DNA of 25,599 nt. Origin: a virus. The stretch lies in the IMG/VR virus record IMGVR_UViG_3300017739_000094; one strand, given 5' to 3'. The translations under genes and the position numbers were made by a program. Shown here piece after piece: positions 1 through 24,951 of the stretch; the first letter of the stretch is position 1, and each line of letters opens with the position of its first letter. The notes beneath the pieces were generated by a model, which was not told where the DNA came from, did not search any database, and was given only the letters and a program-made list of their open reading frames with translations.

Positions 1-123
1 CAAGCTAGTACAGTAGATGGAATAAGATTTACTTCAATTTCAGGTACAATGACAGGCACTATAAAACTTTTTGGAGTGAAACAAATTTAGTATGAGTAAC
101 TTAAGATTAATTAATGAAACTAC
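1..123. repeat. Terminal direct repeat, copy 1 (identical to 25477..25599); circular-assembly overlap or short terminal redundancy
   Basis: By-eye comparison: caagctagtacagtagatgg...ttaattaatgaaactac is present at both ends of the window. It spans the 3' end of the 24964..25566 gene and the 5' end of the 92..628 gene. Confidence 0.95.
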
Positions 124-628
124 AACAACAGCAGGTGTTCAAACAGTAAATATTACTGATGTGTTTTCTAGTGATTTTGATATATATAAAATTGTAGGTG
201 CTGTTAATCTAGCTAACAATTCAACAGCAACAGGTTTTAATTTAAGGTTTATTAATTCTAGTGGAAGTGTTATTAGTGCAAGTGATTATGATTATGCACA
301 ACAAGCTATGAAAGCAGAAGCAAGTTTTAGTGAAAACAGAAGTACAAGTGAAGCTAGATTGTGGAATGTATTTGGCTCTTTAGATGATAGTGGACAATCA
401 GCAGGAAATGTAGCTTATGTATTTAATCCTTATAGTTCAAGTTCTTATACTTTTTGTTTGTGGCAATCATCAACAAAACCTAGTGGAAATTATAGAATGT
501 ATAAAGGAATTGGTGTCTTACATCAATTAAATAGTATTACAGGTTTTCAAGCAGAACTTAATGAAAGTGCAGGGGAGTTTGCAAGTGGTGGAAAGATTAG
601 CACTTATGGATTGAGAGTTGATAGCTAA
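92..628 (+). CDS. Paralog-array protein, subtype A (A1), 178 aa; function unknown, putative tail-tip/receptor-binding component by position
   Basis: Long ORF whose stop overlaps the next start (TAATG 626..630). Clear paralog of 1796..2326 (shared YKIVG, SG(G)SVIS, (D/E)YD, MKAE.SF, YVFNP..SSSYTF). Confidence refers to coding status; the function is inference only. Confidence 0.85.
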   Translation: MSNLRLINETTTTAGVQTVNITDVFSSDFDIYKIVGAVNLANNSTATGFNLRFINSSGSVISASDYDYAQQAMKAEASFSENRSTSEARLWNVFGSLDDSGQSAGNVAYVFNPYSSSSYTFCLWQSSTKPSGNYRMYKGIGVLHQLNSITGFQAELNESAGEFASGGKISTYGLRVDS

Positions 629-1149
629 TGGCAGGACAACTAGTACAAGTAGCAACAAATACAGTATCAAGTGCAGTAGCTAGTGTTACTTTAACAGGCA
701 TAGATAGTGATGATGTTTATATGGTTGCAGTTATGGGTTATATACCTGCAACAGATGATAAAGATTTATTTGCAAGGGTAACAAAAGCTAGTGATAGTTC
801 AGCAGACAGTACTGCTAATTATGATAGAGCAAGTAAATTACTTAGAACTGATACAACTTTTAGTAACTCATCTGCTACTAATGAAACAGAAATGAGATTA
901 GCAAATGGAACAGGTAATGCAACAGGGGAAACTGCACATTGTATATTATATTTATATAATTTTAATAATAGTAGTGAATTTTCATTTATTACTGTTGAGC
1001 AGACAGGTTTAAATGCAAGTTCTACCCATATGGGAAAACAAGGTGGAGAAGTACATACAGTTGCACAATCTTGTAATGGAATAAATTTTTTTGTTGAAAG
1101 TGGTGGAAACATAGCAAGTGGAACTTTTACATTGTACAGGGTGGTTTAA
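628..1149 (+). CDS. Paralog-array protein, subtype B (B1), 173 aa; function unknown
   Basis: Paralog of 2330..2848, about half of positions identical by eye (MAG.L, TVSSAV.SVTLTGIDS, VYMV, TANYDRASKLLR, SATNET, ATGE, NNSSE, FTLY). Confidence 0.85.
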   Translation: MAGQLVQVATNTVSSAVASVTLTGIDSDDVYMVAVMGYIPATDDKDLFARVTKASDSSADSTANYDRASKLLRTDTTFSNSSATNETEMRLANGTGNATGETAHCILYLYNFNNSSEFSFITVEQTGLNASSTHMGKQGGEVHTVAQSCNGINFFVESGGNIASGTFTLYRVV

Positions 1150-1151
1150 TT

Positions 1152-1796
1152 ATGAGTAGTGAATTTGGATATATACCTGAATCTCCTGAACAGAGTTTTG
1201 GAAATAATAAAGGTATCTTTACACCTACTGATATTTATGATTTAACAAGAGCAGATAAATATACTAACTATGGACAATTAGAATTAATACAAACACAAGA
1301 AGTTACAAGTTCAACATCAGCATTAGACTTTACAAGCATAGAAGAAAACAAATTCAATACTCATTTAATGACTTTTACAAAATTTAAACCAATAGTAGAT
1401 GGAAATATTTTACAGCTACAATTTAGCACCAATGGTGGAAGTTCTTTTAGTTCAAGTGGTTATCATTATGCTTTTGAAAGTGGTAGAAGTACAGGCTCTT
1501 TTTTTGAGAACAGGAGTACAAGTTATGCAGGAATAAGAGTAAATGGTAATCAGGGAACTGCAAGTAATGAAAATTCTAATGGCTACATATACTTTTATAA
1601 TTTAGGGGATAGTTCTAAATATAGTTTTGTAACATCACACAATATGTCTTGGACTAGAACACCTGAAGCAGAATTTTGGTTTGGTAGTGGTGCTCAACCA
1701 ACTGCACAAACTGTAAATGCAATTAGATTAGTTGGTAACACAGGAAATATAGATACAGTAATTGCAAGTCTATATGGCATAAAGGAATATTCATAA
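1152..1796 (+). CDS. Paralog-array protein, subtype C (C1), 214 aa; function unknown
   Basis: Paralog of 24964..25566 (G(I/L)(F/Y)TP, LELI, FYNLGDSSK(Y/F)SF, TV(N/D)(A/G)IR, (Y/F)G(I/V)K). Compared with subtypes A and B it has an N-terminal extension of about 40 aa. Its stop overlaps the next start (TAATG 1794..1798). Confidence 0.85.
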   Translation: MSSEFGYIPESPEQSFGNNKGIFTPTDIYDLTRADKYTNYGQLELIQTQEVTSSTSALDFTSIEENKFNTHLMTFTKFKPIVDGNILQLQFSTNGGSSFSSSGYHYAFESGRSTGSFFENRSTSYAGIRVNGNQGTASNENSNGYIYFYNLGDSSKYSFVTSHNMSWTRTPEAEFWFGSGAQPTAQTVNAIRLVGNTGNIDTVIASLYGIKEYS

Positions 1797-2326
1797 TGAG
1801 TACTAATTTACAATTTATAAAATCTGCTACAGGAAGTGATGTTAATACTTTAAGTATTACAAATTGTTTTAGTGATAAATATCATGTTTATAAAATTGTT
1901 GGACATACTGCTGATTACAGAACAACAGGGGCAGGTGTTATTTCTTTAAGACATAGATTGATAGATAGTGGGGGAAGTGTTATTAGTGATAATGAGTATG
2001 ATAGTGCAAGATTATTAATGAAAGCTGAAACAAGTTTTGATAATGATAGATTTACAAGTTTAAGTTATATGTATGACACAATGCAATTAGGAAATTATGA
2101 AAATGCAGGAAGTGTTGTTTATGTCTTTAATCCTAATGACAGTTCAAGTTATACATTTATGCTTGGACAGGGTGCAGGTGGATATGATACTTCAAATAAT
2201 AGATTTAGAGGTGTAAAGCAAATTGGTGTACATAAAGTAACAGAACAAATTACAGGTTTGAATATTTTTAGTAGTAATGCAAGTATTAATTTTGATGTAA
2301 CAATATCAGTATATGGAGTGAAATAA
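1796..2326 (+). CDS. Paralog-array protein, subtype A (A2), 176 aa; function unknown
   Basis: Paralog of 92..628 (see that entry). Confidence 0.85.
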   Translation: MSTNLQFIKSATGSDVNTLSITNCFSDKYHVYKIVGHTADYRTTGAGVISLRHRLIDSGGSVISDNEYDSARLLMKAETSFDNDRFTSLSYMYDTMQLGNYENAGSVVYVFNPNDSSSYTFMLGQGAGGYDTSNNRFRGVKQIGVHKVTEQITGLNIFSSNASINFDVTISVYGVK

Positions 2327-2329
2327 AAA

Positions 2330-2848
2330 ATGGCAGGTAGCTTAATAAAAATAGCAGAAACAACAGTTAGTTCAGCAGTAAGTTCTGTAACTTTAACAGG
2401 TATTGATAGCACTTATGATGTGTATATGGTTACAGTAAGTAATTTACAATGTGATACAGACACAGAAGATGTTAAATGTAGAGTTACTGAAAGTGATACA
2501 CCAAATACAACTGCAAATTATGACAGAGCAAGTAAATTATTAAGAGCAGGTAATGCTTTTGCTAACCAATCTGCAACTAATGAAACAAGTTGGGATATGG
2601 GAACTAATATAGGAACAGCAACAGGGGAAAGTTCTAATTTTGTTATTTATGTTTTTAATGCTAACAACAGTTCAGAATATACTTTTATGACAAAAGAAGT
2701 TGCTGAGTTAAACTCTACACCAGAATTAGTAGGACAACAAGGTGGAGGAGTTTTTACTTCTACAAGTACAGTAAATGGACTGCAATATTTTATGGATAGT
2801 GGAAACATAGACAATGGTGTATTCACTTTATATGGTTTAAAGAAGTAA
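2330..2848 (+). CDS. Paralog-array protein, subtype B (B2), 172 aa; function unknown
   Basis: Paralog of 628..1149 (see that entry). Confidence 0.85.
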   Translation: MAGSLIKIAETTVSSAVSSVTLTGIDSTYDVYMVTVSNLQCDTDTEDVKCRVTESDTPNTTANYDRASKLLRAGNAFANQSATNETSWDMGTNIGTATGESSNFVIYVFNANNSSEYTFMTKEVAELNSTPELVGQQGGGVFTSTSTVNGLQYFMDSGNIDNGVFTLYGLKK

Positions 2849-2880: not shown

Positions 2881-3180
2881 ATGACAGAGGAACAAGCACT
2901 AGAACAAGCTACTGCAGAGGTAGAAGCTGCAAAGCCTATGAAAGCTCAAGTAAATAATGAAGTTAGAGAGTTTACTGATGCAGAATATAATCAAGCAATA
3001 GAGGACAGAAAAAACTCTATTCTTAATGATTATAACTTTGGCTATATTGAAGCTAGACAAGAAGCCTATGGATCAATACAAGATCAACTAGATATGCAAT
3101 ATTGGGATGGTGTTAATGACACTACTACATGGGCAGATCATATAGCACAAGTTAAAGCAGATAATCCTAAACCTGAATAA
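2881..3180 (+). CDS. Acidic 99 aa hypothetical protein (possibly fibre-associated, by position only)
   Basis: ORF preceded by aggagag 5-6 nt upstream of the ATG. Glu/Asp/Gln-rich. No motif I can assign. Confidence 0.7.
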   Translation: MTEEQALEQATAEVEAAKPMKAQVNNEVREFTDAEYNQAIEDRKNSILNDYNFGYIEARQEAYGSIQDQLDMQYWDGVNDTTTWADHIAQVKADNPKPE

Positions 3181-3227: not shown

Positions 3228-3479
3228 ATGACTTTATTACAATACTCTGAACAGCAGGGAAAGAAGCCTACAGGGCAGTTTGCAGCTACTAGATTTATAT
3301 TAGATAATCCAGAAGCTAAGAAAATCTTTCTTAAAGTGGCTAAAGAAGCTGAAACAGAATATATATCAGATACAACAGCAGCTCAATATTTAGTAGATCA
3401 ATATGAGCAATTTGCACATCTCAATTACAACACAGTAAGGAGATACTTTAGGGATTATAGAGATGGCAGAATCAAGTAA
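3228..3479 (+). CDS. Hypothetical 83 aa protein, possible small DNA-binding protein
   Basis: Strong RBS (taggagg) upstream. Basic C-terminal helix-rich segment (NYNTVRRYFRDYRDGRIK). The function call is weak. Confidence 0.6.
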   Translation: MTLLQYSEQQGKKPTGQFAATRFILDNPEAKKIFLKVAKEAETEYISDTTAAQYLVDQYEQFAHLNYNTVRRYFRDYRDGRIK

Positions 3480-4680
3480 TCTTAAAAAGTTTGCAAAAAC
3501 TGTAAAAGATAGAGATCCTAGACAAACTAAAAAGAAAATACAGCATCCCAAAGGCTTTGAGCCATCAGCATCTTTTAGCCAAGCTACAAGATCAGGAGAA
3601 ATAGTATCTAGCCCACAAAAGCAAAATGATGTGGATTGGAAAGAACAATTAGAGTCATATTTTGGTAAAGATGCCCATAAATACAAAGTTATAGAAAATC
3701 AAGCAGAAATAAGATTTTGGGATTCTAACATAGGAAATGGCAATATAGAGAGGCTTTATTACTTCAAAGCAAAGATTGTTTCTAGTGAGCAATATATGCC
3801 AGATCAGGACTTTAAAAAGCTTTTATCCTCTGCAGGTAAGCTAAAGAAAAAAACAAATAAAAATCCTGTAAAAGATACAAAAACATTCTGTATTGCACTA
3901 GCAGATTTTCAAATAGGTAAAGAGGGTACTGAGGAAGCAATAGAGAGGTTTATAGACTATATTCCTAAGATTAAGGCACAGATTAAGCAGATCCAGAAAG
4001 TAGAGTCATTAGAGCAGGTATTGTTTGCAGGATTAGGGGATTTAGTTGAATCCTGTTCAAATCATTACAATATGCAAGAATTTACTACAATAATGGATGA
4101 AAGATCTCAACAAAAGGTAGCTAGGAGGATGATATACACCTTAATAAAAGAAATTATGCCATTGTTTAGTAAAGGTTTAGTTTGTTTTATAGGTGGTAAT
4201 CATGGAGAAAACAGAAAGAATGGTAGAGCCTATACAACTTTTGCAGATAATAAAGATGTTATGTTGGCAGAGGAACTACAAGAGATATTTCAAGAATCAG
4301 CAGATTATAAAAAATCATTAGATTTTATTATTCCAGATAGTGAATTATTTATGACTATAGAGGTTTCTGATACTGTTTTACTGTTACTTCATGGGCATCA
4401 GATGAGAGGTGCAGGTAATTCACAAGCTAAAGCAAGAAAATGGCTATCAGATCAAGCTTTTTCTAGGAATGCAACAGCTGATGCAGATATAGTTCTACAT
4501 GGGCATTATCACTACTTTTCTGCTTATGAAAGCTCAGATAGGCTCATATTACAAGCTCCTACATTAGATTCAGGCTCAGAATGGTTTGAAAATACAAAAG
4601 GGGACAGATCTAGGGCAGGAATGCTTACTTTTGTAATTGGAGGAGAGGCTAAGTGGGACTATATTAAGGTTATAAGGTAA
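3463..4680 (+). CDS. Calcineurin-like metallophosphoesterase (Mre11/SbcD-type fold) with a basic N-terminal extension of about 130 aa
   Basis: Ordered metallophosphoesterase motifs: ALADFQIG, GLGDLVE (GD), GGNHGEN (GNHE), LLLHGHQ (GH), VLHGHYHY (GHxH). Confidence 0.75.
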   Translation: MAESSNLKKFAKTVKDRDPRQTKKKIQHPKGFEPSASFSQATRSGEIVSSPQKQNDVDWKEQLESYFGKDAHKYKVIENQAEIRFWDSNIGNGNIERLYYFKAKIVSSEQYMPDQDFKKLLSSAGKLKKKTNKNPVKDTKTFCIALADFQIGKEGTEEAIERFIDYIPKIKAQIKQIQKVESLEQVLFAGLGDLVESCSNHYNMQEFTTIMDERSQQKVARRMIYTLIKEIMPLFSKGLVCFIGGNHGENRKNGRAYTTFADNKDVMLAEELQEIFQESADYKKSLDFIIPDSELFMTIEVSDTVLLLLHGHQMRGAGNSQAKARKWLSDQAFSRNATADADIVLHGHYHYFSAYESSDRLILQAPTLDSGSEWFENTKGDRSRAGMLTFVIGGEAKWDYIKVIR

Positions 4681-4683
4681 ATA

Positions 4684-5301
4684 ATGAAACTTGAAGTATT
4701 AAGATTTAATAGTGGTAAAGATTTCACTTCTGGATTGCTATTTGATGTAACAGATAATGTAAGATCCTTTTTAGCATACACCATAGAGGATCAATATAAT
4801 CCAACTAAAATTCATGGCTCTACAAGAATTCCTGCAGGTACATATAAACTTGAATTAAGAGCTGATGGTGGTTTTCACAATAGATATTTAAAAAGGTATG
4901 GTGCTGAATGGCATAAAGGTATGATTTGGGTAAGAAATGTTCCTAATTATAAGTGGATATTATGGCATGTAGGCAATAGCCCAATAGACACTAAAGGATG
5001 TCTCTTGCTAACAAAAACTCAGAAAGATGGGTTTGGAGGAGCATCAAGAGCTGCTTATGAGCAAGTTTATCCTATTGTGAAAGATGCAATTCTTTCTGGA
5101 GAGGAAGTAACTGTAACTTATAAAAACTTTGATGGAAATATAGTATCTAATAAATCAACAGATGATGTTGTAAATATATCTCAAGTTTCTAAGAATCAGG
5201 AGGATATAATGGATATATTATCTACAGAAATAAAACATTTAAAAGCAGAAGTTAAAGCTCTTAGACAAGCAATCATACTTAAAGGGATGCAAGTTAAGTA
5301 A
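4684..5301 (+). CDS. DUF5675-like protein (YkuD/L,D-transpeptidase-like catalytic signature) with a C-terminal coiled coil; candidate cell-wall-acting enzyme
   Basis: Motifs T.G.L, TIED, TRIPAGTYKLELR, NVP....ILWHVGNSPIDTKGCLLL. These match my recollection of the DUF5675 family and resemble the H...G-C active-site stretch of YkuD enzymes. Sits next to a holin-like gene. Confidence 0.5.
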   Translation: MKLEVLRFNSGKDFTSGLLFDVTDNVRSFLAYTIEDQYNPTKIHGSTRIPAGTYKLELRADGGFHNRYLKRYGAEWHKGMIWVRNVPNYKWILWHVGNSPIDTKGCLLLTKTQKDGFGGASRAAYEQVYPIVKDAILSGEEVTVTYKNFDGNIVSNKSTDDVVNISQVSKNQEDIMDILSTEIKHLKAEVKALRQAIILKGMQVK

Positions 5302-5445: not shown

Positions 5446-5631
5446 ATGTCAGATGATATGAAAGATATGCTTGAGAGAGCTATTTGGACTTTTGTTGAAG
5501 CATTTATTGGTGCTTTAACCATATCTCCACTTGTAGGAGTAGATGCTAATGCTTTACAGTTAGCTGCTATTTCTGGTGGTGGTGCAGCTTTAGCTGTAAT
5601 AAAGACTTATGCAAAGAAAAAAGTAAGTTAG
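5446..5631 (+). CDS. Holin-like small membrane protein (r1t-type holin resemblance), 61 aa
   Basis: Strong RBS (gaggaggag). Two hydrophobic segments (AIWTFVEAFIGALTISPLV and LQLAAISGGGAALAVI) followed by a basic C-terminus (KKKVS). Last gene before the terminator. Confidence 0.6.
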   Translation: MSDDMKDMLERAIWTFVEAFIGALTISPLVGVDANALQLAAISGGGAALAVIKTYAKKKVS

Positions 5632-7169: not shown

Positions 7170-7472
7170 ATGCTTAAAATGTTTGGCAGGAGTAAGCCTT
7201 TACCTAATATACAGATTATTGCTCAAGAAAAGAATTTATCAGAATTTAGAAAAATTAGATATATTTTAGAACTTGAGGGATTTATTTGTACTTTAGATTC
7301 TGAGTTTGCTAAAAGTGGCAATCTAAGAAAAGCTATAAATAGGCTAAAAGCTGATTATAATTCTACAATTTATCTTATGGATTGTGATTGTAACAATAAG
7401 CAGAAAGCTAAGTTAAATGCTAATGGGACACCTAGAAAGCATAAAGCTTATATCTTAGAATGGGCTAGATGA
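7170..7472 (+). CDS. Hypothetical basic protein, 100 aa
   Basis: ORF abutting the previous stop (TAAATG). No recognisable motif. Confidence 0.6.
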   Translation: MLKMFGRSKPLPNIQIIAQEKNLSEFRKIRYILELEGFICTLDSEFAKSGNLRKAINRLKADYNSTIYLMDCDCNNKQKAKLNANGTPRKHKAYILEWAR

Positions 7473-7894
7473 TAGAACTTTTATTAACTTGTTCATTGTT
7501 AGGTAAGGTAGATTTTGATATTGATACCTATCAAGATCTATACAGAGTTCCTTATCAATGTAAGTTAATAGAGCAGGTGCAGGAGTGGATTCCATTAGTT
7601 AATATCCACTTTAAAGAGGATGAAGCTCTTGCATTAACTGTTATTTATTGTGAAAGCTCTGGATATTATAAAGCTACAGGATATAACAGAGATGGATCTT
7701 TTGATCAGGGTTTATTTCAATTTAATAATAGAACTGAGAAATGGCTTGAGGATGATATATATAATAAAGACTTAGATATGTATGATCCAGAAACTAATGT
7801 AAAAGCTGCTAGGTGGCTTTCTTATTATGATGGATGGCATCATTGGAATAGCAGTAAGCATTGTTGGGGTAGATATGCCAAATCAGAACAATAG
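7469..7894 (+). CDS. Lysozyme-like / lytic transglycosylase (GH23, SLT/Rpf-like)
   Basis: Catalytic-type signature VIYCESSGY ... DQGLFQFNNRTEKW ... NVKAARWL. ATGA overlap with the upstream gene. Confidence 0.75.
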   Translation: MIELLLTCSLLGKVDFDIDTYQDLYRVPYQCKLIEQVQEWIPLVNIHFKEDEALALTVIYCESSGYYKATGYNRDGSFDQGLFQFNNRTEKWLEDDIYNKDLDMYDPETNVKAARWLSYYDGWHHWNSSKHCWGRYAKSEQ

Positions 7895-10036: not shown

Positions 10037-10537
10037 ATGGATTACATAGATGATATGTCTTTAGCTTTACCAAATCAACAACAAGTAGGAGAATCTAATG
10101 TTGATTTTAAAAGATTTCAATACTATTTAGCTTTAGGTGCAGGTAGAACTTTACTAAAAGTTTCAGAAAACTTCAGTTTGACAGAGAGGAGAATCTATCA
10201 AATATCCTCTAAGAATCAATGGCAAGATAGAGTAAAAGCTATTAATAAAATGCTAAATGAACAGATAATTGGGGAAGTTTTTGCACAAGTAGGAGAAACT
10301 GCAAGAGATCTAGCTGATGAGCTTAAACCTGTAATATTTAGAATTATTAATGAAATAAATGAAAGGGATTTAGCTTCTATGAATCCTACAGAATTAAAAG
10401 GATTATTAGATATTTGCTATAAGATGATTAGTCAGATCTATGGTTTAGGAACACCTCAAGTAACAGTAAATCACATAGAACAACCACAGATTAAGTTTAA
10501 GTGGGATTGGGAGCAGGATGATGAGCCAGATTATTGA
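10037..10537 (+). CDS. terS: Terminase small subunit (putative)
   Basis: Lies immediately upstream of, and overlapping, the large terminase. Helix-turn-helix-like segment GRTLLKVSENFSLTERRIYQISSKNQWQDR, with size typical of TerS. Confidence 0.6.
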   Translation: MDYIDDMSLALPNQQQVGESNVDFKRFQYYLALGAGRTLLKVSENFSLTERRIYQISSKNQWQDRVKAINKMLNEQIIGEVFAQVGETARDLADELKPVIFRIINEINERDLASMNPTELKGLLDICYKMISQIYGLGTPQVTVNHIEQPQIKFKWDWEQDDEPDY

Positions 10538-11750
10538 GGCTACTCCACCTGATCTACATTCTGGACAATTAGAAGTTATAAAAGCATTAGATGAACATAG
10601 GTTTATTATTGCTGTATGTGGCAGGAGATGGGGTAAAACTACACTTAGTTTAGTTAGTGCAGTAGATCAAGCATTAAAAGGTTTAAAAGTTTGGATTATC
10701 TTTCCTGTATATCCACAGGCTTTAGAGTCTTGGCTTAATCTTAAAAGTTTAGTAAGACAGTTACCAGAGGACTATGCAGAAACTAGAGAAGTAGAGAAAA
10801 GAATAGTATTAGCTAATGGTGGATCTATACAGATAAAATCAGCTAACAAACCAGAAACTCTTAGAGGTGCAGGTGGTATATCTCTTATAATCTTTGATGA
10901 GGTTGCTTATCAAGATAAAGAAACATGGGACACAGTAAGACCAATCTTATCTGATAGCTTAGGCAAAGCTTTATTTATATCTACACCAAATGGCATGAAT
11001 TGGTTTTATGAGTTGTTTGACAATGCTAAAAGGAGAGCTGATTGGAAAGTATTTCATTATCCAACAGAGCAATCTCCTAGAATTAACAAAGATGAGTTAG
11101 CACAAGCCAGAGAGGAGCTAGGCTCTATGGTGTATGCACAGGAGTTCTTAGCAGAATTTACAGAAGTAGGACACATGTTTAAAAGAGAATGGTTTAAGTA
11201 CTATGACACTATTGAAGCAGATGATCCAGAGTATGTGTTAGGAGATGAAGTAGTAAAGCATAGTGAGCTAAGTATATTTGGCACTATGGACACAGCACTA
11301 AGTATTAAAGAGACTGCTGATTATTCAGTAATAATAACAGTTGGATCTACTCCTAGTGGTAAGCTATTAGTAATGGATGTATTCAGAGCTAGACTAGAAG
11401 CTCCAGAGTTACTTCCACAGATAGAATCAAAGATTGTAGAATACAATATGTCTTGGTTGGGAGTGGAGGATTCTAGTTTTGGTCTTGGTATTATTCAGAT
11501 GGCTAGGAGGCAGGGTTTGCCAATAAGGAACTTAAAGGCAGATAAGTCAAAAACTGCTAGAGCTGTACCTGCTGCTGCAGGAGTAGAAAATGGCACAATA
11601 TGGTTTTTGAAAAATGCTAAATGGCTTGTAGAATTTGAAAGAGAATTAACTAGCTTTCCATCTAGTGGATCTCATGATGATATGGTAGATGCCTTAGCTT
11701 ATGCAGCTAGGTTTGGGATAGTTAGAAAGACAAATTGGAGTGTAAACTAA
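10518..11750 (+). CDS. terL: Terminase large subunit
   Basis: Walker A AVCGRRWGKTT, Walker B LIIFDEVAY, and a C-terminal RNaseH-like nuclease signature (SVIITVG ... GSHDDMVDALAYA). Confidence 0.95.
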   Translation: MMSQIIEATPPDLHSGQLEVIKALDEHRFIIAVCGRRWGKTTLSLVSAVDQALKGLKVWIIFPVYPQALESWLNLKSLVRQLPEDYAETREVEKRIVLANGGSIQIKSANKPETLRGAGGISLIIFDEVAYQDKETWDTVRPILSDSLGKALFISTPNGMNWFYELFDNAKRRADWKVFHYPTEQSPRINKDELAQAREELGSMVYAQEFLAEFTEVGHMFKREWFKYYDTIEADDPEYVLGDEVVKHSELSIFGTMDTALSIKETADYSVIITVGSTPSGKLLVMDVFRARLEAPELLPQIESKIVEYNMSWLGVEDSSFGLGIIQMARRQGLPIRNLKADKSKTARAVPAAAGVENGTIWFLKNAKWLVEFERELTSFPSSGSHDDMVDALAYAARFGIVRKTNWSVN

Positions 11751-14741
11751 TTGGGAATTAGAGATAATATTAGAGGCTTCTTTGCTCAGGAAGTACAAAC
11801 AGAAAAGAAATCTGGGCAATATCCAACATCACAAGTAGTCTTTCCATTTAATACAGATGCAGGTTACTTTAGTGGAGTCAATCAAATGTCTCCAGAGGGT
11901 AATTCAGCAGCTCTTGCTTGTTTAAATGTACTTGGTACAGCTTTTAGTGAGCCACCATTAAAGGTATATTTAAAGAATCAAGAGGGGGATGAATACATAG
12001 ATAAGCATCCTGCTGCAATACTTTTAGAGAATCCTAATCCTAATATGACAGCATCACTACTAAATAACTATATTGTTACTTCTGTTGCTGTATCTGGAGA
12101 TGCTTTCTTACTTAAACTTAGAAATGAATCAGGAGCAGTAATACAACTTATACCTTTACTACCAGAGATGGTTGAAGTAAAAGGAAACACAGAACAGTTA
12201 ATAACTAAGTATGAATATAAGCAAAAAGGCAACACAATGACAATATTGCCAGAGGATATGATACATCTTAGAGAGAGAATAGATCCTAGAAATCACAGGA
12301 GAGGGTTAGCACCTCTTAGATCTGTAATGGTAGAAGTATTAGGAGATGCTGCAGCTTCACAGATGGGAGCAGCATTAGTAAAGAATACAGGTGTTCCTAG
12401 TGTTGTTATATCTCCAAAGAATGATTTAAGTATGACAAGTGATGAAGCAGAGAACATAGCTGAGGTATTTGGTAGGAGATTTGGAGGAGAGAATAGAGGG
12501 AGACCATTAGTTATATCTGGTGGAGAAGTAGATATAAAAACTCTTTCCTTTAGCCCAAAAGATTTAGAGATAGGCAAACTTAGATACATTAATGAGGAAA
12601 GAATATCTGCTGTATTAGGTGTTCCTGCAATATTAGCAGGACTAGGATCTGGATTAGAGAGAGCAACATACTCTAATGCAAAAGAACTTAGAGAGTTCTT
12701 TACAGAACAAAAGCTTATTCCTATGTGGAATCACTTTGCTAATGAATTTACAAAACAATTATTAATACAAGATTTTGAGGATAATACAGATTACTGCTTT
12801 AAATATGATCTTTCAGATGTTAGAGCCTTATCACAAGATGAGGATGCAACTATGCAAAGAATAGTAACAGGATTTAATGCAGGGTTTGTAACAGTCAATG
12901 AAGCAAGACAAGCTAATCAGTTATCTGCTCTTGATGATGGAGATTACTTCATAAGAAATATGATGGTAGCTGAAGTTCCTGTTGAGGGAGATGATGTAGT
13001 TATGTATCATGCTGAAACTTCTGAGGAGATAGAGGTTAAAGCAGTTTCTAAGAGGATAGAGGGGATTTTAAGAGATAAAGTTACAGAGCATAATGACAAA
13101 GATCCAAAGTATAGAGCAACTTATTCAATGCTTAAACAAGTATTTGAAAGAGGAGTAGGTGCATATAATACCAATCCACAATCAGTAAGACCAAATGTTA
13201 CTAGTTCAGATCAATGGGCATTAGCAAGAGTTAATACTTTTATTAGAGCATTAAGTTCAGGCAGATTTAGAAATAGAGCTTTTGATACAGATCTACTACC
13301 TGAGAATCATCCTAAAAGCACAAAGAAAGAAATAAATTTAGAAGTAGAAACAAAAGTAGATAAAGTTCCTAGTTATATACAAAAGAATGCACAAAGAGGA
13401 TTAGATTTACTTGAATATGCAGGATCAGGTTTAACAGATAAAACAAAAAGAGAAGCTAGAGAAATGGCTAATGGAAAGATTAGTGATAACAAAGTTGTAA
13501 GAATGGCAGCTTGGTTTGCTAGGCATGAGGCAGACTTAGACTCAGATAAAGCTAATGATTATCTTAATGGAAATAGTGATAGACCAACAGCAGGGCAAGT
13601 AGCTTGGTTGTTATGGGGTGGAGACATATCTAAATCTAACAAGATGAGAGCTTCTAATTGGGCAACTAAAGAAGCTGAGAAAGTTAAAGAAAACAAAAGT
13701 ATTGACTTTCCACTATATGGATGGCAAGAGCCTACAGTAAAAATCTTAGGATTACCTACAGTAAAGCATTACAGATCAGAGATAGAAAAGAAAGAACTCT
13801 GGGAAGCTATTAATGGTTTAGAAAACTCATGGAGTGAGTATATGGCTAATATCTATGCAAAAGAACTTAATAGGCAAAAAAGAGCTTTATCTAATGTTGC
13901 TAAAGCTAGTCATGACTTAGCTGCACTAGAAACTAATGTAGATATATTCCTAAATGAATCTAAGTTTGATAAAGAGTTACTACCATTGTTTTATTCTCTT
14001 GGGGATGATATGTCAGTTAGAACTTGGGATAATCTTTTTCCTGCACAAGAAAACTTTAAAGCTGCAGATCCTGTAGATCTAGGAGTGCAAGTAGATGAGG
14101 AACAAGCAATAAGAACAGTATTTGGTACTTTATCAGGATTACTACCAGAGGGCAGAACACTTAAAAAAATTGTAGATAATGGCTTTTATAGAGGACAAAG
14201 AGAAGTTCCTGCAGAAGTAAGATCATTGTTTCAAGATTCACAAGCAGCAGGGTTTGTGCAAGATAATGCTAAGAAAGTTATGAATGACTTAAATGCAACT
14301 ACAAAGAAAAGAATTGCTACACAGATAACAAAGACAATAAAAGAGTTTGAGGATCTAGGAATAGTAAATCCTGTAGCAGGAACACCAGATGGAGATAGAT
14401 TCTTTAATGAGTTATCTAAAAAGATAAATGTAGTTTTAGGAGGACAGAACTTAGGTAGAGCTAAGAATATAGCTAGAACAGAGGTTGGTAAGATAAGTTC
14501 TTGGAGTCAGCAAAGAGCTGCAAAAGCTACAGGCAAAACTTTAGAAAAAGAGTGGGTATCTAGGAGAGATGGAGTTGTTAGAGAAGCACATTTTGAGTTA
14601 GACAATCAAAGAGTTCCTCTGAATAGTTTTTATCTGTATAATGGTATTAAGTTGGATGCTCCTAGAGATCCTAATGCTCCAATTAGCTTGATTGCTAATT
14701 GTAGATGTACAGAAGCTTATATTGAGGTAATAGATGAATGA
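11751..14741 (+). CDS. Portal protein (HK97-family type) fused to a C-terminal MuF / SPP1 gp7-like head-morphogenesis domain, 996 aa
   Basis: TTG start directly after the terL stop, with ggag about 10 nt upstream. The N-terminal ~420 aa are portal-like and sit next to terL. The C-terminus carries the MuF signature ARTEVGKISSW ... WVSRRDGVVREAHFELDNQ ... LIANCRCT. Confidence 0.85.
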   Translation: MGIRDNIRGFFAQEVQTEKKSGQYPTSQVVFPFNTDAGYFSGVNQMSPEGNSAALACLNVLGTAFSEPPLKVYLKNQEGDEYIDKHPAAILLENPNPNMTASLLNNYIVTSVAVSGDAFLLKLRNESGAVIQLIPLLPEMVEVKGNTEQLITKYEYKQKGNTMTILPEDMIHLRERIDPRNHRRGLAPLRSVMVEVLGDAAASQMGAALVKNTGVPSVVISPKNDLSMTSDEAENIAEVFGRRFGGENRGRPLVISGGEVDIKTLSFSPKDLEIGKLRYINEERISAVLGVPAILAGLGSGLERATYSNAKELREFFTEQKLIPMWNHFANEFTKQLLIQDFEDNTDYCFKYDLSDVRALSQDEDATMQRIVTGFNAGFVTVNEARQANQLSALDDGDYFIRNMMVAEVPVEGDDVVMYHAETSEEIEVKAVSKRIEGILRDKVTEHNDKDPKYRATYSMLKQVFERGVGAYNTNPQSVRPNVTSSDQWALARVNTFIRALSSGRFRNRAFDTDLLPENHPKSTKKEINLEVETKVDKVPSYIQKNAQRGLDLLEYAGSGLTDKTKREAREMANGKISDNKVVRMAAWFARHEADLDSDKANDYLNGNSDRPTAGQVAWLLWGGDISKSNKMRASNWATKEAEKVKENKSIDFPLYGWQEPTVKILGLPTVKHYRSEIEKKELWEAINGLENSWSEYMANIYAKELNRQKRALSNVAKASHDLAALETNVDIFLNESKFDKELLPLFYSLGDDMSVRTWDNLFPAQENFKAADPVDLGVQVDEEQAIRTVFGTLSGLLPEGRTLKKIVDNGFYRGQREVPAEVRSLFQDSQAAGFVQDNAKKVMNDLNATTKKRIATQITKTIKEFEDLGIVNPVAGTPDGDRFFNELSKKINVVLGGQNLGRAKNIARTEVGKISSWSQQRAAKATGKTLEKEWVSRRDGVVREAHFELDNQRVPLNSFYLYNGIKLDAPRDPNAPISLIANCRCTEAYIEVIDE

Positions 14742-19073: not shown

Positions 19074-19784
19074 ATGCCTACATTTTCACATGGTAAAGAT
19101 GCAGTAATATTATTAGATAATACTAATCTTTCAACAACATTAACAGATGCCTCCTTATCACTTACAGCAGATGTAACAGAAACTTCTACATTTTCTAGCT
19201 CTAGTAAAAGCTATGTAGCAGGATTAAAAGATGGCACAGCTACTCTTTCTGGTTACTTTGAAACTTCATCTCCAGATTCAGATGCTGAGTATTTAGCTCA
19301 GTTGGGAGGATCTGGGGCAGCATTCTCTATTGCACCAATAGGATATACTAGAGGGAATGCTGTATCTTTTGGCACTACATTAGAAACATCTTATGATAGA
19401 TCAGCAGATGTAGGATCAATAGTTGCAGTAGCTGTAGCATTTCAATTTAGTGGAGATGCTTATAATGGTAAGTCTTTACTTACACCAACTGCTGTATCAA
19501 GTACAAGTAATCAAACATCAGTAGATTTTGCAGCTGCAGGTACAAATGGTGGTGCAGGAGTTCTGCATTGTACAGTAAGTAGTGGTAGCCCAACTTTAGA
19601 TGTTAAAATACAAACAAGTGCTGATAATGCTTCTTTTTCTGATTATATTACATTTACTCAGGCAACAGGAACAACATCAGAACTAAAAACAAGTGCAAGT
19701 AATCCTGCAAGATATGCAAGAGCAGTTCTTACCTTTGGTGGATCTGGTAGCATAACAGCAGCAGTAGGATTTGCACAAGGATAA
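19074..19784 (+). CDS. Major tail (tube) protein, long paralog with a C-terminal extra domain of about 100 aa
   Basis: Strong RBS (gaggaggaggag). Located upstream of the chaperone and tape-measure genes. The N-terminal ~135 aa are homologous to 19808..20218. The Ser/Thr/Ala-rich, beta-type C-terminal extension suggests an Ig-like decoration. Confidence 0.7.
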   Translation: MPTFSHGKDAVILLDNTNLSTTLTDASLSLTADVTETSTFSSSSKSYVAGLKDGTATLSGYFETSSPDSDAEYLAQLGGSGAAFSIAPIGYTRGNAVSFGTTLETSYDRSADVGSIVAVAVAFQFSGDAYNGKSLLTPTAVSSTSNQTSVDFAAAGTNGGAGVLHCTVSSGSPTLDVKIQTSADNASFSDYITFTQATGTTSELKTSASNPARYARAVLTFGGSGSITAAVGFAQG

Positions 19785-20785: not shown

Positions 20786-22887
20786 TGGCTAGAGCAACTT
20801 TAGAAATGTTTTTGAAGCTTTCTGGAGCTGATAAGACTTCCAGAGGCTTAGATAAAGTATCTAAATCATCAAAAAAATTAGATACTGATGTTAATAATAC
20901 ATCTAAATCAAATGCTCAATTTGCTGCAGGTATGTCTGGACTAGGTAAGGCAGCAGTAGCAGGTGCATCTATATTTGCTGCTAGAGCTTTAGCTGATTTT
21001 GCTAGAGATTCAGTTATGGCAGCAAGTTCTGCTCAAGAAGCTGCAGCAGCTTTTGGAACTACTTTTGGAGGTGCAGCTGCAGATTTAACAGAGCAATTAC
21101 AAAGAAATGCACAATTATTTGGATTAACTACATCAGAAGCACAACAATTAATAGGTGTATTTGGTGCTGTTGCACAGGGTATGGGTTTTACACAAAATGA
21201 AGCCTCAGATTTATCATCAAGATTATTTGGCTTGTCTGGAGATATAGCATCTTTTAATAACATTGCAGCAGGTGCTGAGCCTGTTCTAAGAGCATTTCAA
21301 TCAGCAATAGTTGGAGAAAGAGAGGCTCTTAAAACTTATGGTATAGCTATTTCAGAAGCAGAAGTACAAACAAAAGCTTTTGAGATGACAGGCAAGAAAT
21401 CAGCAGATGCACTTACTAGACAAGAAAAAGCATTAGCCACTACAGAATTATTATTTCAAAAAGCCTCTGTACAGATTGGTAATGCTGAAAGAGAAGCTGA
21501 TGGATTTGCTGCACAGATGTTACAAACAAGAGCTGCTACAGCAGAATTAAAAGAGCAAGTTGGTGCAGAACTTTTACCTGCAGCAGCAGAGTTGTTAGGT
21601 AATTTTAATAGTTTTGTAGATACTGTTGCTCCTGCTGTTATTAGTGCATTTGGTTTAGTTGGAGATGCAATTACTACTACAGCAGAGCTTACTGATAAAG
21701 GCACTGATGTATTTACAGATTTTATTAAAAGATATATTTTAGGACAAAGAGTTATTAAAGAGGAGGAGGGAGCTATTGAGGATTTTAATAAAGCAGTTAA
21801 AGAAAATAATGAAGTTTTAAATGAAAACTCTGTAAATATTTTTAATGCTGTTGGTTTTTCACAAGATTTTACAAATGTACTTAGAATGAAAGAAAAAGCA
21901 TACTCCTCTTTAAATAAAGAAATAACAGTTAATAGATCATTTCTTAATATAAATAGAGTTGCACAAGACAAATATCAAACTTTATTAAACAAAAAGACAT
22001 TACCAACACTTGAAAGATATCTTAAATTTATGAATCTTTTAAATGATGAAAATGAATTTACAGAGGACAAAGCTGCAGAACTTGCCTCTGCTCAAGATAG
22101 ATTAACAGAAGCACAAAGAAAAGAAGCTCTTTCTACTGCTGAGGAAGCCTTACAGAAAAAAGAACTAACAAAAGAAATAGCAGAATTATTATTTTTTCAG
22201 CAACAGGGTGCTAATGTCTCTGAGGAGTTAGCAGTAGCACAAGAAAAACTTAGATTAATAGAGTTTGAATTAACAAGAGAATCAGAGGAATTAAGAGATG
22301 CTAAAGCTGATTTAGCAGAAGTAGAAGCAGAGTTAGTTCCAAAAATTGATGAAACTACAGAGTCATTAGCTACACAAGCAGAAAAATTCATATTACTTAA
22401 TGAAAAAGTTGAAGAATTTAAAGAATTAGCTGCTGATGAGGAGTTCATGGCTATTGCAAATAAAGCAGATGCAGCAAATCCATTTTTAGCTATAGGACTT
22501 GGGTTAATGAGTGAATTAGCAGAATTGCAAGGATTAAATGACAGAGCAAAAGAGCTAGACAATTTTGCTAAAGCTGCTGAAAGATTAGCAGCAGCACAAG
22601 CAGGTTTGTTTGATGATGTTCCTACTACTAAATTTACACCTCCAACTTTAGATCCATCTAAACTTTTGCCACCTAATTTTATTGACAAAGGCTTATTAGA
22701 TGCTTTATCAGGTAATGGTAATGGAGCAGTAGTAGATGGAGATGTGTTAGGAGATCAATCTAATGTTAATAGCAATAACTCTGGTGGAGATACTAATCTT
22801 AATTTAACTTTAGAACTTGATGGAGAAGCAATACAAAAATTTAATACTAAATTGCAACAACAGGGTAAAACTTTTTTGGTTAATTAA
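20785..22887 (+). CDS. Tape measure protein, 700 aa
   Basis: Largest tail gene, Ala/Gly/Leu-rich N-terminal region and long coiled coils. Lies downstream of the chaperone pair. At about 1.5 Angstrom per residue this predicts a tail of roughly 100 nm. Confidence 0.9.
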   Translation: MARATLEMFLKLSGADKTSRGLDKVSKSSKKLDTDVNNTSKSNAQFAAGMSGLGKAAVAGASIFAARALADFARDSVMAASSAQEAAAAFGTTFGGAAADLTEQLQRNAQLFGLTTSEAQQLIGVFGAVAQGMGFTQNEASDLSSRLFGLSGDIASFNNIAAGAEPVLRAFQSAIVGEREALKTYGIAISEAEVQTKAFEMTGKKSADALTRQEKALATTELLFQKASVQIGNAEREADGFAAQMLQTRAATAELKEQVGAELLPAAAELLGNFNSFVDTVAPAVISAFGLVGDAITTTAELTDKGTDVFTDFIKRYILGQRVIKEEEGAIEDFNKAVKENNEVLNENSVNIFNAVGFSQDFTNVLRMKEKAYSSLNKEITVNRSFLNINRVAQDKYQTLLNKKTLPTLERYLKFMNLLNDENEFTEDKAAELASAQDRLTEAQRKEALSTAEEALQKKELTKEIAELLFFQQQGANVSEELAVAQEKLRLIEFELTRESEELRDAKADLAEVEAELVPKIDETTESLATQAEKFILLNEKVEEFKELAADEEFMAIANKADAANPFLAIGLGLMSELAELQGLNDRAKELDNFAKAAERLAAAQAGLFDDVPTTKFTPPTLDPSKLLPPNFIDKGLLDALSGNGNGAVVDGDVLGDQSNVNSNNSGGDTNLNLTLELDGEAIQKFNTKLQQQGKTFLVN

Positions 22888-24134
22888 TGTCTGTTAATTT
22901 TGATTCTAATGTATCTATAACTGTAGAAATAGCTTTTGATAGTAATCCTTTAGATAGTTCTCAAACATTTACTGATGTTTCACAGTACTTAAGAAGCTTT
23001 ACAACAACAAGAGGTAGAGTTAGCAACTTATCAGATTTTCAAACAGGTACAGCTATTGTAGAGCTTGATAATAGAGATAATAGGTTTTCTCCTAATCAAT
23101 CAACACATTACTTTGATTCATCAGCAGGGAGAACAAAAATACAACCATTAAAAAGATTAAGAATCAGGGCTACTCATAGTTCTACAACTTATGATCTTTT
23201 TCATGGTTTTGTTGAGAGTTTTCCTGTTCAGTATGCAGGGCAGGGTTATGATTCAAGTACAAAAATTAGAGTTGTAGATGCTTTTAAATTATTTTTTAAT
23301 GCTACTTTAGATGGTATTGGGTGGCAGTTAGGTATTTCTAAGCTAGGATCTACTACTAGGCTTACACTTACTCAAGCACAAGAATTAAGCTCTGTAAGAG
23401 TTAAAAACATACTTGATAGCTTTGGTTATTCAAATCAGGCAATATCTACAGGACAATTACAAGTTACTACACAATCTACAACAGATAATCTATTAAATGC
23501 ACTAAGAAAAGTGGAAACAGCTGAAAATGGTACATTTTTTATAGCTGCTAATGGTAATGCTACATTTAGAGATAGAAATTTTAGATTAACTAACACTACT
23601 ACACCTGCAGCTACTTTTGGGCAGGGTGGATCAGAGTTGCCATATGTAGATATTGTTTCATCTTATGATGATAATAAAATTGTTAATACAGTACAAAGGA
23701 CTAGAACAGGCAGTAGTAATACACAAATTGCTATAGATTCTGATTCAGTAGAGAGATTTGGTACTCATGTTTTAACTGAATCTGGAACATTAAACACACA
23801 AGATAGTGATGCTGCTTCTATTGCAGAACAAAAAGTAGTAGCTAACTCAATACCACAAACAACTGTTGAAAGTTTATCTTTTGCTCCACAACAAGACACA
23901 AACTTATGGGCTAAAGCACTAGGATTAGACATTGGTAGCTTTGTTGAGGCAAAAGTTACTACACCATCTAGCACCATAGAAACTTATGATTTGTTTATTG
24001 AAAGAATAAAGCATAAAGTAGATGCTAGAAACAAGACTTGGAATTGGCAAATAGGACTATCTCCTGCAGAAACAGGAGCTTGGATTCTAGGAGTTTCTAA
24101 GTTAGGAATAGACACAAACATAAGTTATACTTAA
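22887..24134 (+). CDS. Distal tail protein (Dit-like, siphovirus tail family), 415 aa
   Basis: TAATG overlap with the tape measure. The N-terminal signature VSITVEIAFDSNPLDSSQTFTDVSQYLRSFTTTRGRVSNLSDFQTGTAIVELDNRDNRFSP closely follows the pattern I recall for Dit/'phage tail protein' genes downstream of tape measures. Confidence 0.7.
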   Translation: MSVNFDSNVSITVEIAFDSNPLDSSQTFTDVSQYLRSFTTTRGRVSNLSDFQTGTAIVELDNRDNRFSPNQSTHYFDSSAGRTKIQPLKRLRIRATHSSTTYDLFHGFVESFPVQYAGQGYDSSTKIRVVDAFKLFFNATLDGIGWQLGISKLGSTTRLTLTQAQELSSVRVKNILDSFGYSNQAISTGQLQVTTQSTTDNLLNALRKVETAENGTFFIAANGNATFRDRNFRLTNTTTPAATFGQGGSELPYVDIVSSYDDNKIVNTVQRTRTGSSNTQIAIDSDSVERFGTHVLTESGTLNTQDSDAASIAEQKVVANSIPQTTVESLSFAPQQDTNLWAKALGLDIGSFVEAKVTTPSSTIETYDLFIERIKHKVDARNKTWNWQIGLSPAETGAWILGVSKLGIDTNISYT

Positions 24135-24157: not shown

Positions 24158-24610
24158 ATGGCAGCAGGAGCTTGGTTTGATTGGAGTACAGGAGATCTAG
24201 TAACAGAAGCTAGATTTCAAGACATTCAAGACTCAATAGTCTTTATTTATGCCTCAGAGTCAGCAGCTAACACAGCTTTAACTAATAAAGTTGAGGGGAC
24301 TGTGTTTGTAGATACTACAGATAATTTAATTAAAATGTGGAATGGGAGTAGTTGGCAAACAGCAGAAGCAGGAGATATTTTAGGAATTACCACAAGTTCT
24401 ACTTCTGGTATGGCAGGTGGTGCTACTTCAGGAACACCTAGCTTAAGTGTAAAGCCAAACTCTGCAACTTCAGGTACAGTAGCATCAGGAGATGAAATAC
24501 TGTTTGGAGATATTAATGACAGCAATAACCTTAAAAAGACAACAGCAGGAGATATTGCTGCACTTGCACCATCAGGAGTAACTTTAGGATTAGTATTAGC
24601 TCTATCTTAA
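24158..24610 (+). CDS. Small tail-fibre-like protein, 150 aa
   Basis: RBS aaggag. The motifs EGTVFVDTTDNLIKMWNGSSW and SGDEILFGDINDSNNLKKTT resemble short motifs recurrent in phage fibre proteins (from memory, not verified). Confidence 0.5.
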   Translation: MAAGAWFDWSTGDLVTEARFQDIQDSIVFIYASESAANTALTNKVEGTVFVDTTDNLIKMWNGSSWQTAEAGDILGITTSSTSGMAGGATSGTPSLSVKPNSATSGTVASGDEILFGDINDSNNLKKTTAGDIAALAPSGVTLGLVLALS

Positions 24611-24624: not shown

Positions 24625-24951
24625 ATGGCAGATACATTACATTCAGTTCAGGGAGTTCTTGGAACATCAGCAGGAGATATTGTTGATGCAGTTCCTAGCT
24701 CTACTACTGAAACAGTAATTGGGATTCTGGTATCTAATGTTAGTGGAAGTAGTGCTGATGTAACTATAGATCTATCAGTAACAAAATCTGGTGGAACATT
24801 AAGACACATTTTAAACAATGTTTCACTACCTTTTGGAACAACTATTGAAATACAAACAAAGGTAACACTAGAAACAGGAGACAAACTGCAAGGACTATGT
24901 TCTGCAGCTTCTAGTGCAGAATATAATGTTTCATTCTTAAGACAAACCTAA
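24625..24951 (+). CDS. Small beta-rich structural-region protein, 108 aa; function unknown
   Basis: ORF with RBS gaaagga, located between the fibre-like gene and the paralog array. Confidence 0.6.
   Translation: MADTLHSVQGVLGTSAGDIVDAVPSSTTETVIGILVSNVSGSSADVTIDLSVTKSGGTLRHILNNVSLPFGTTIEIQTKVTLETGDKLQGLCSAASSAEYNVSFLRQT

Follow-up and report, generated by a model that had tools for sequence, protein, structure and literature searches.

A duplicated trio of small beta-sandwich proteins related to the ends of phage tail fibers is a candidate host-recognition cassette in an uncultured siphovirus lineage

A conserved adaptor joined to an exchangeable distal part, with more than one adhesin on a virion, is a well-known logic of phage adhesins. 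The viruses of SAR11 include some of the most abundant viruses of the ocean and, to our knowledge, host recognition by viruses of SAR11 and of other streamlined marine bacteria is essentially unknown. Here we describe six paralogous genes, arranged as two trios in the order C-A-B-C-A-B, in the genome of an uncultured marine virus (IMG/VR record IMGVR_UViG_3300017739_000094). The window is the full stretch of 25,599 nucleotides (nt) of that record, a 123-bp assembly overlap included, and all positions are given in window coordinates. In the reading that we favor, to which we assign a probability of roughly 60%, the six genes form a modular host-recognition cassette in which a C-type protein anchors each unit, the A and B proteins ride on C, and two such sets are present. 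We infer the location of these proteins in the virion, the binding of a receptor, the hetero-assembly of C, A, and B, and the plug-and-socket pairing that this reading invokes.

By analogy with the T7-like tailspikes, the SP6/K1-5-like tailspikes, and the branched tailspikes of G7C and CBA120, the cassette appears to join a conserved N-terminal docking element to a fast-evolving, exchanged distal body. Breakpoints seem in both cases to fall just after the adaptor, and in both more than one receptor-binding unit may be carried per virion. The putative adaptor of the window phage, however, is a peptide of 20 to 45 amino acids (aa), whereas that of the tailspikes is a folded domain; its distal part consists of one small beta-sandwich, where the tailspikes have a beta-helix or a long shaft; and, unlike in the tailspike systems, two of the three subunit types carry no adaptor. 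The receptor-binding proteins (RBPs) of lactococcal phages (p2 ORF18, TP901-1 BppL, and Tuc2009 BppL/BppA) are likewise small all-beta heads encoded after Dit and Tal at the end of the tail module; each baseplate holds many copies of them, and they move from phage to phage. They form homotrimers and possess shoulder and neck domains of their own. The window proteins have no sequence match to them, and the only structural match, a negligible one, is to the Tuc2009 RBP head (Foldseek probability of 0.21, template modeling [TM] score of 0.23).

The cassette occupies the plus strand from 24964 through the circular junction to 2848. The proximal trio comprises C2 (24964..25566, 200 aa), which begins with an anchor peptide of about 33 aa (MAYFGTQPNDVKKNTGLYTPSEILQLTKDGSWGG), followed by A1 (92..628, 178 aa) and B1 (628..1149, 173 aa), both without an N-terminal extension. 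The distal trio comprises C1 (1152..1796, 214 aa), with an anchor at residues 1-42 (nt 1152-1277) and a body at residues 43-214, followed by A2 (1796..2326, 176 aa) and B2 (2330..2848, 172 aa). In a six-way alignment of these paralogues, an N-terminal extension is found in type C only. The open reading frames (ORFs), their order C2-A1-B1-C1-A2-B2, and their passage across the circular junction are all as the original prediction, made from the letters of the sequence, had described them. The stop codon of C2 (25564-25566) lies 1 nt before the ATG of A1 (25568, equivalent to position 92), TAATG overlaps join A1 to B1 (626-630) and C1 to A2 (1794-1798) in translational coupling, and the three junctions without an overlap, C2/A1 among them, have the spacers of 1, 2, and 3 nt that had been reported.

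All six proteins had been proposed to be homologous, and the alignment statistics agree. Members of one type, expected to be one third to one half identical, are 35 to 51% identical by BLASTP (A1/A2, 37%, E = 2e-23; B1/B2, 51%, E = 4e-51; C1/C2, 35%, E = 4e-28). Pairs of different type mostly align over most of the domain with E-values from 1e-4 to 1e-14 (nominal database of 1e5 residues), the weak ones being C2/A2, A1/C1, and C1/A2. Smith-Waterman z-scores against 300 shuffles range from 27 to 54 within types and from 3.9 to 20 across them, and C2/A2, the weakest pair, is the only one that does not exceed every shuffle. Profiles of the A, B, and C types built from 41 loci match one another over about 170 columns at HHalign probabilities of 99.8 to 99.9% and E-values from 1e-29 to 1e-34. 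Twelve columns of the six-way alignment are invariant, among them a Y-x-x-N-x3-SS-x3-F strand-loop motif, and the signature motifs quoted earlier for each subtype are present in the translations. No other ORF of the genome matches the family profile.

AlphaFold2 (AF2) models bear out the proposal that a single beta-rich module of about 170 aa underlies all three types. The model of B2 is confident (predicted local distance difference test [pLDDT] of 94, predicted TM score of 0.89) and contains 11 beta strands, and the body of C1 (pLDDT 91-97) has the same 11 strands; the C1 anchor is modeled at a pLDDT of 50-70 with a short helix at residues 25-33. Mean-field direct coupling analysis (727 sequences, effective number 537) pairs strand 1 (B2 residues 4-13) antiparallel with strand 11 (residues 163-172, i+j about 176), which brings both ends of the chain to the same pole of the domain. 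Conservation in type B is highest (0.8-0.9) over the first 30 and the last 10 residues. The domain has a conserved base, made of the N- and C-terminal segments together at one end, and its remaining segments are more variable.

Foldseek searches of the PDB with both AF2 models returned galectin-8 (E = 0.011, TM 0.39) and a GH43 C-terminal sandwich (E = 2e-4, TM 0.32) as the best matches. The comparison with galectins and concanavalin-A-like folds reaches a Foldseek probability of 0.96, but at E-values of about 0.01, TM scores of 0.31-0.43, and root-mean-square deviations of 7-9 Å. A resemblance to jelly-roll heads of the TNF/C1q kind, which had been suggested for checking, was not found: no TNF or C1q chain is among the 50 PDB matches listed for either model, and we reject that fold assignment. 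PDB sequence searches with B2 and with a profile of the six paralogues gave no match. C1q nonetheless offers an analogy at another level. Its globular head is a heterotrimer of three paralogous chains (A, B, and C) encoded by tandem genes, and the window trio may be likened to it as three tandem-encoded paralogues of one beta-sandwich domain, preceded by collagen repeats (in relatives, for the phage family) and with its N and C termini together at one pole. Unlike C1q, the phage proteins lack a collagen stalk of their own and show no C1q/TNF chain among those Foldseek matches, and a heterotrimer is hypothetical here.

The family could not be recognized when the cassette was first noted, and it has no Pfam, NCBIfam, or PDB relative for any of the six proteins. 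C1 (E = 8e-10) and B2 (E = 2e-11) align with nearly the full length of PHROG 14820, to which no function is assigned; despite their homology to these two proteins, C2, A1, B1, and A2 have no PHROG match at E = 0.1. None of the six matches Pfam-A, NCBIfam, or PADLOC at E <= 0.01, and the sole curated-family listing, YqaJ for C2, falls below that cut-off (E = 0.12). The family is nonetheless very large. A search of 1.84 billion cluster representatives with the family profile recovered 10,745 proteins at E <= 1e-3 (the count is of clusters at 50% identity) and 2,681 at E <= 1e-10, and B2 has 1,387 homologues in marine metagenomes.

The position of the domain in long relatives is one pointer to its role. 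In 53 of 61 such proteins (428-1,373 aa) the chain ends no more than 3 residues from the domain, and the N-terminal architectures, scanned or taken from precomputed Pfam matches, include Phage-tail_3 with Rcc01698_C, Mtd_N, collagen triple helix, DUF5907, TIG, and Laminin_G_3. Foldseek searches of BFVD returned 109 matches at E <= 0.001, with TM scores of 0.75-0.97 among the top matches, and these often lie at the C terminus of longer proteins named tail fiber, collagen triple helix, lambda Stf repeat, or fibronectin type III. Because of this C-terminal position and these fiber-type N termini, we regard the domain as an uncharacterized but very common terminal domain of phage fiber proteins. 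The C-terminal end of a fiber is the usual place of its receptor-binding part.

The same architectures introduce the main rival of a C-anchored unit, namely that the six proteins are independent adhesins, each a homo-oligomer (probably a trimer) with its own docking site, giving up to six specificities and no heteromer. Most long relatives carry a single, C-terminal copy of the domain (one copy in 52, two in 5, and three in 4 of the 61), some of them behind collagen repeats, which are trimeric. The Gly/Ser-rich linkers of the fused three-domain proteins, moreover, look flexible. Three natural fusions of this kind have no Pfam match, and attempts to map their domains by order onto C, A, and B gave no clear correspondence; they look like independent expansions. 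We consider the independent-adhesin alternative unlikely overall, principally on account of the features of the A and B proteins and of their gene order that are described below.

The N-terminal extensions of type C are the most conserved parts of the cassette. The anchor at position 1 (C2 type) reads Y-x-GTQPN-x-VKKNTGLYTPSEILQLTKDGSWGG and is nearly invariant across loci, that at position 4 (C1 type) reads EFGYIPESPEQSFGNNKGIFTPTDIYDLTRADKYTNYG, and single-trio phages carry a shorter, different peptide, MPLGAARFGLLGGVADLGK. Among 100 homologues of C1, the frequency of the major residue is 0.91 in residues 1-42 and 0.58 in the body. A segment that is conserved and yet poorly ordered in a monomer model is what would be expected if it folds on a partner. 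Proteins of 186-189 aa that have a different N terminus and no long extension share 76-79% identity with the C1 body, and plug and body are therefore separable. In locus L013, a hidden Markov model of the plug finds its motif at the head of a 238-aa protein that is not a module protein, and the start of a 317-aa Gly-rich protein resembles the plug by eye. A and B of this lineage, by contrast, are the bare domain, with no extension with which independent adhesins could dock.

Two neighboring proteins are candidates for the partner of the plug. The gene for w108, a conserved 108-aa protein (24625..24951), immediately precedes the first C gene of all six-gene loci for which upstream sequence is available; w108 is 78-95% identical in most six-gene loci, even where the 415-aa protein encoded further upstream is 25-48% identical, and 30-57% identical in three divergent ones. 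Single-trio loci have no w108 at that position. It is thus a marker of the two-trio form and, judging from its distribution, a putative socket for the C-type anchors. The second candidate, a 150-aa fiber-like protein (24158..24610), has about 78 N-terminal aa that belong to the conserved backbone and a cassette-specific C-terminal half that ends in GVTLGLVLALS. Its homologues in six-gene loci end in G(V/I)SLGLVLALS, whereas the fiber-like proteins of single-trio loci (192-236 aa) have another C-terminal domain and lack the SLGLVLALS tail; the 150-aa protein also has weak PHROG matches to the N termini of long uncharacterized proteins. A relationship between w108 and the C-terminal domain of the 224-aa fiber-like protein of single-trio phages was considered and rejected (HHalign probability <= 2%).

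Taken together, these observations suggest the following arrangement. The domain of about 170 aa, which ends a long tail-fiber protein in thousands of other phages, is here split into free-standing C, A, and B subunits. The N-terminal peptide of type C would serve as a plug that ties the unit to the phage, and its partner would be w108, the conserved C-terminal tail of the 150-aa protein, or both, as candidate sockets for the two plug variants. A and B would be attached through contacts of their domains with C or with one another, and C+A+B would act as one unit. The distal set C1-A2-B2 would correspond to the single set of relatives, and the proximal set C2-A1-B1 would be an older, diverged copy with its own plug variant. 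The variable parts of the bodies would bind structures on the host surface, and two sets would provide more binding sites or a second specificity. We favor the C-anchored C+A+B unit because only C is tethered, A and B are bare, the C-A-B order is constant, and the genes are translationally coupled.

The constancy of that order emerged from a survey of 80 related IMG/VR loci, plus nine from four contig look-ups, scanned with the family profile. Copy number had been expected to vary between one trio and two, and both forms were found. There are 28 six-gene loci (24 non-redundant), with products of about 200/172/169/211/172/172 aa, and 22 complete single-trio loci (17 non-redundant), with products of about 188/172/172 aa. 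Every complete array surveyed (41 non-redundant loci) keeps the order C-A-B with one of each, which, like the translational coupling, counts against independent adhesins. We denote positions in six-gene arrays S1-S6 and positions in single trios T1-T3. Mean BLAST scores between these classes assign S1, S4, and T1 to type C, S2, S5, and T2 to type A, and S3, S6, and T3 to type B, as expected if there are three types and a whole trio was duplicated. The T3-S6 score (153 bits) equals the within-class scores (155-157 bits). Judged by these scores, the single trio of relatives is orthologous to the distal trio (C1-A2-B2), and the proximal trio (C2-A1-B1) makes conserved classes of its own. The duplication is therefore old and has been maintained in the lineage.

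Expanded and supplementary arrangements were also seen. One locus (L013:58-6106) has an enlarged cassette with two genes of the 108-aa type and a 63-aa mini fiber-like gene, and the gene for its 317-aa Gly-rich protein is inserted between the two trios. In a single-trio locus (L062:9042-9835), the trio and the 99-aa gene are followed by a second fiber-like gene (151 aa) and a gene of the 108-aa type, which suggests a further attachment set elsewhere in that genome.

The most direct comparison of the two forms comes from loci L084 and L087, whose backbone is 86-90% identical to the window at the nucleotide level. The identity spans the tape measure protein, the 415-aa protein (95% at the amino acid level), the exonuclease (90%), the DUF5675 protein (98%), and the SLT-domain protein (94%). 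Homology stops at window position 24390, inside the gene for the 150-aa protein, and restarts near 2304; in between, L084 and L087 carry a 224-aa fiber-like protein and one trio, the members of which are 31-48% identical to those of the window. Natural populations thus contain almost the same phage in a one-trio and a two-trio version.

This comparison bears on the second hypothesis of the original prediction, a two-tier baseplate built from one repeated fold. In such a reading the six proteins would be structural blocks of one or two baseplate rings or tiers, mainly architectural, and another protein would recognize the host. Six paralogues could suit a three-fold or six-fold symmetry, and no recognizable Tal/hub or other baseplate protein is encoded between the 415-aa protein and the lysis region, although the tip has to be built by some component. 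Architectural parts, however, are normally conserved together with the backbone, and here the backbone is 86-95% identical but the modules 31-48%, and their number is six or three. The same genes also move into a phage with a different capsid type, and the domain is the distal end of fiber-like proteins rather than a part of a hub. A purely architectural role is improbable, given that the modules vary in number and sequence while the backbone hardly changes.

Exchange between phages extends to single genes. When the distal and single trios of different loci are compared pairwise, the identities of C, A, and B correlate poorly with one another (r = 0.18-0.45), and 21 locus pairs combine a distal-trio gene that is at least 75% identical with a neighboring gene that is at most 45% identical. 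In L039 and L045, A is 97% identical, C 42%, and B 54%; in L042 and L047, B is 95% identical, C 40%, and A 42%. On L003, a contig of 31.7 kb that has a capsid gene of the SU10 type (SU10_MCP), the B gene is 81% identical to B2 of the window, and the C and A genes are 33-41% identical to their window counterparts. The A gene of L023, a single-trio locus, shares 76% identity with A2, and the C gene of that locus is just 38-39% identical. Each gene is therefore a separate unit of exchange. The modules evolve and recombine faster than the backbone, as is evident from their identities (31-48% versus 86-95%), the change in trio number, the mosaicism, and the transfer between capsid types.

Independent exchange of single genes is what the independent-adhesin alternative would lead one to expect, being easier to explain in the absence of co-adapted interfaces, and it thereby favors separate homo-oligomers. 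In an extended form of the C-anchored reading, a hetero-oligomeric receptor-binding head of three paralogues, one of them tethered, would be built combinatorially from a pool of independently replaced A, B, and C variants, with two such heads on one 108-aa adaptor. We advance this extension tentatively; it is possible, if somewhat doubtful.

The closest cultured relatives are pelagiphages. By TBLASTN, free-standing members of the family occur only in Pelagibacter phages and one uncultured record (HTVC019P gp45-47, HTVC010P gp30-32, HTVC034P, and one copy in Lederberg), and B2 and C1 match the pelagiphage trio proteins at BLASTP E-values from 1e-5 to 3e-11 and the six-paralogue profile does so at 5e-10 to 5e-13. 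HTVC010P gp30-32 and HTVC019P gp45-47 (and likewise HTVC034P) resemble the window cassette in that the same domain forms three consecutive paralogues of about 200 aa in the tail-fiber region, with w99-like and w108-like genes nearby. HTVC010P and HTVC019P belong to unrelated phage groups that share one host strain, Pelagibacter HTCC1062, and their trio members, annotated as hypothetical, are positional orthologues 57-65% identical. These phages differ from the window phage in being podoviruses with a single trio, whereas the window encodes a siphovirus with two; in having extensions on all three members rather than on type C alone; and in that their trio members are 47-58% identical to each other without mapping to C, A, and B, whereas the window types are clearly diverged. 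An order-wise mapping of the HTVC019P trio onto C, A, and B likewise gave no clear correspondence, and this trio too looks like an independent expansion. A literature search on pelagiphage tail fibers, receptor-binding proteins, and cryo-electron microscopy found no description of these proteins.

The flanking genes are shared as well. The w108 homologues HTVC010P gp24 (E = 2e-18) and HTVC019P gp39 (E = 2e-11) are both labeled "virion structural protein." The gene for w99, an acidic 99-aa protein (2881..3180), is found after the last B gene wherever a related locus reaches beyond that point, and its C-terminal portion of about 42 aa is 50% identical to HTVC019P gp42 and 40% identical to HTVC010P gp29. 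In the pelagiphages these homologues lie 5' of the trios, with gp29 right next to gp30 and gp42 two genes ahead of gp45, and both trios are followed by a 95-97-aa protein annotated as "tail fiber assembly" in HTVC010P and "tail fiber protein" in HTVC019P. Residues 55-98 of w99 contain a motif of the type W...I.Q.K.DNPKPE, which also occurs in small proteins of pelagiphages, of methylophage MEP301, and of T4-like cyanophages (Syn9 gp40, P-TIM40, and S-T4); in L087, the first 62 aa of w99 are almost unchanged and the C-terminal part is different. Given the cultured pelagiphage relatives and the low G+C content, a SAR11-type host for the window phage is plausible. A scan of bacterial genomes for prophage copies found just a 4.6-kb contig of a metagenome-assembled genome labeled Maricaulis, which has little bearing on the host.

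Several observations weigh against the C-anchored unit. All trio members of HTVC010P and HTVC019P have N-terminal extensions, so anchoring through C alone is not general, and the independent-adhesin alternative gains from each cultured-pelagiphage member having an extension of its own. Three copies are not preferred among the fused proteins (52, 5, and 4 with one, two, and three), nor do their domains map onto types C, A, and B. The C+A+B assembly itself is argued from missing anchors and conserved gene order, and the labels on the w108 homologues are database annotations only. The fold is without a significant solved relative, galectin-8 and the GH43 sandwich being its best, weak matches, and for that reason the type of ligand cannot be inferred.

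A tail-tip, host-recognition role for the cassette, as the original prediction had surmised, is supported nonetheless by the position of the genes, by homology to the C-terminal ends of fibers, and by a mode of evolution like that of receptor-binding modules, with cassettes swapped and a conserved anchor joined to a variable body. The six proteins might instead be late-expressed, non-virion products that act in superinfection exclusion, as decoys, or as lectins that modify the host surface. We regard this as very improbable: the six have no signal peptide or membrane segment (maximum hydropathy in a 19-aa window <= 1.15) and no PADLOC or NCBIfam match, their genes are part of the tail module, and other phages have the domain joined to fiber-like N termini.

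The genome that carries the cassette is complete. Bases 25477-25599 of the window exactly copy bases 1-123, as a direct repeat at both ends; the genome is therefore circular and complete at 25,476 bp. The repeat, placed within the C2/A1 junction, is the assembly overlap of a circular or terminally redundant genome and not a biological repeat. Every gene is on the plus strand, and G+C content ranges from 28 to 38% in 1-kb windows (about 33% overall). The recognizable gene set identifies a small siphovirus: large terminase (10518-11750), a 996-aa fusion of portal and Mu F-like domains (11751-14741), S78 prohead protease, HK97-type capsid protein (15709-16938), a major tail protein of 236 aa (19074-19784) and an adjacent paralogue of 136 aa (19808-20218), and the tape measure protein (TMP; 20785-22887). 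No near-identical DNA was found among GenBank phages by megablast, and because the capsid and terminase are less than 30% identical to those of any GenBank phage, we conclude that the lineage is uncultured.

The cassette follows, in order, the two major tail proteins, TMP, the 415-aa protein, the fiber-like protein, and w108, and is succeeded by the exonuclease (3463-4680), the DUF5675 protein in the endolysin slot (4684-5301), and a holin-like protein (5446-5631); the SLT-domain protein lies further on (7469-7894). Gene order thus places the six modules at the distal end of the tail morphogenesis module, but in two respects the neighborhood differs from that first described. The block does not directly follow the fiber-like gene, since the w108 gene (specific to the two-trio form) intervenes, nor does it directly precede the lysis genes, from which a 99-aa gene, an 83-aa gene, and the exonuclease separate it. 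The 415-aa protein (22887..24134), directly 3' of the TMP gene, had been taken for Dit; its position fits a Dit or hub protein, but no family match backs the identity. Its sole family match is phrog_5313 (function not assigned), it has no match in Pfam or the PDB, and it is 95% identical in the single-trio phage L084. Between 22887 and 24951 there is no recognizable Dit (Sipho_tail) or Tal/hub protein, and PDB sequence searches with the 415-, 150-, and 108-aa proteins gave marginal matches only, to two designed repeat proteins and, for w108, to the CenC cellulose-binding domain (E = 0.008).

Several features of the backbone deserve record. Both major tail proteins begin with MPTF(S/T)HGK and match major-tail-protein PHROGs, the longer having about 100 extra aa at its C terminus, and the relative L006 has the same pair (239 and 135 aa). 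The portal and Mu F-like head-morphogenesis domains, usually separate proteins, occupy residues 53-388 and 886-987 of the single ORF at 11751-14741, which has a TTG start. In the endolysin slot, L008 encodes Peptidase_M15_4 with PG_binding_1, and L010 encodes Amidase_2 with PG_binding_1 followed by an r1t-type holin; because relatives carry such proteins in the same slot, the DUF5675 protein may be an unrecognized endolysin. L087 has, between a 100-aa gene and the SLT gene, a 250-aa ORF (L087:6468-7220) that resembles a DNA methyltransferase by eye (DPPY motif) and is not in the window (about 7170-7470), and L006 and L007 have a Mom-family gene just 3' of the SLT gene. The region near the SLT gene looks like a second variable spot of the lineage.

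As far as we could find, what appears to be new here is the domain family, its split into three free-standing paralogues of which one is tethered, the polymorphism of one trio versus two, and the link to a dedicated 108-aa protein. A family of more than 10,000 clusters at 50% identity, without a curated model or a solved structure, is now placed at the tips of tail fibers, and concrete receptor-binding protein candidates are available in HTVC010P and HTVC019P, both of which can be cultivated. The C-type anchor peptide, the 108-aa protein, and the Y-x-F-N-x3-SS motif provide markers of host-range modules for marine viromes. A C-A-B heteromer, should it prove real, would be an unusual design for an adhesin, and, if heads are indeed assembled combinatorially, this could be the main host-recognition system of SAR11 viruses, as the device is found in phages of both the HTVC010P and the HTVC019P type. 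The ecological weight of the phages that carry it gives the cassette a moderate to high interest.

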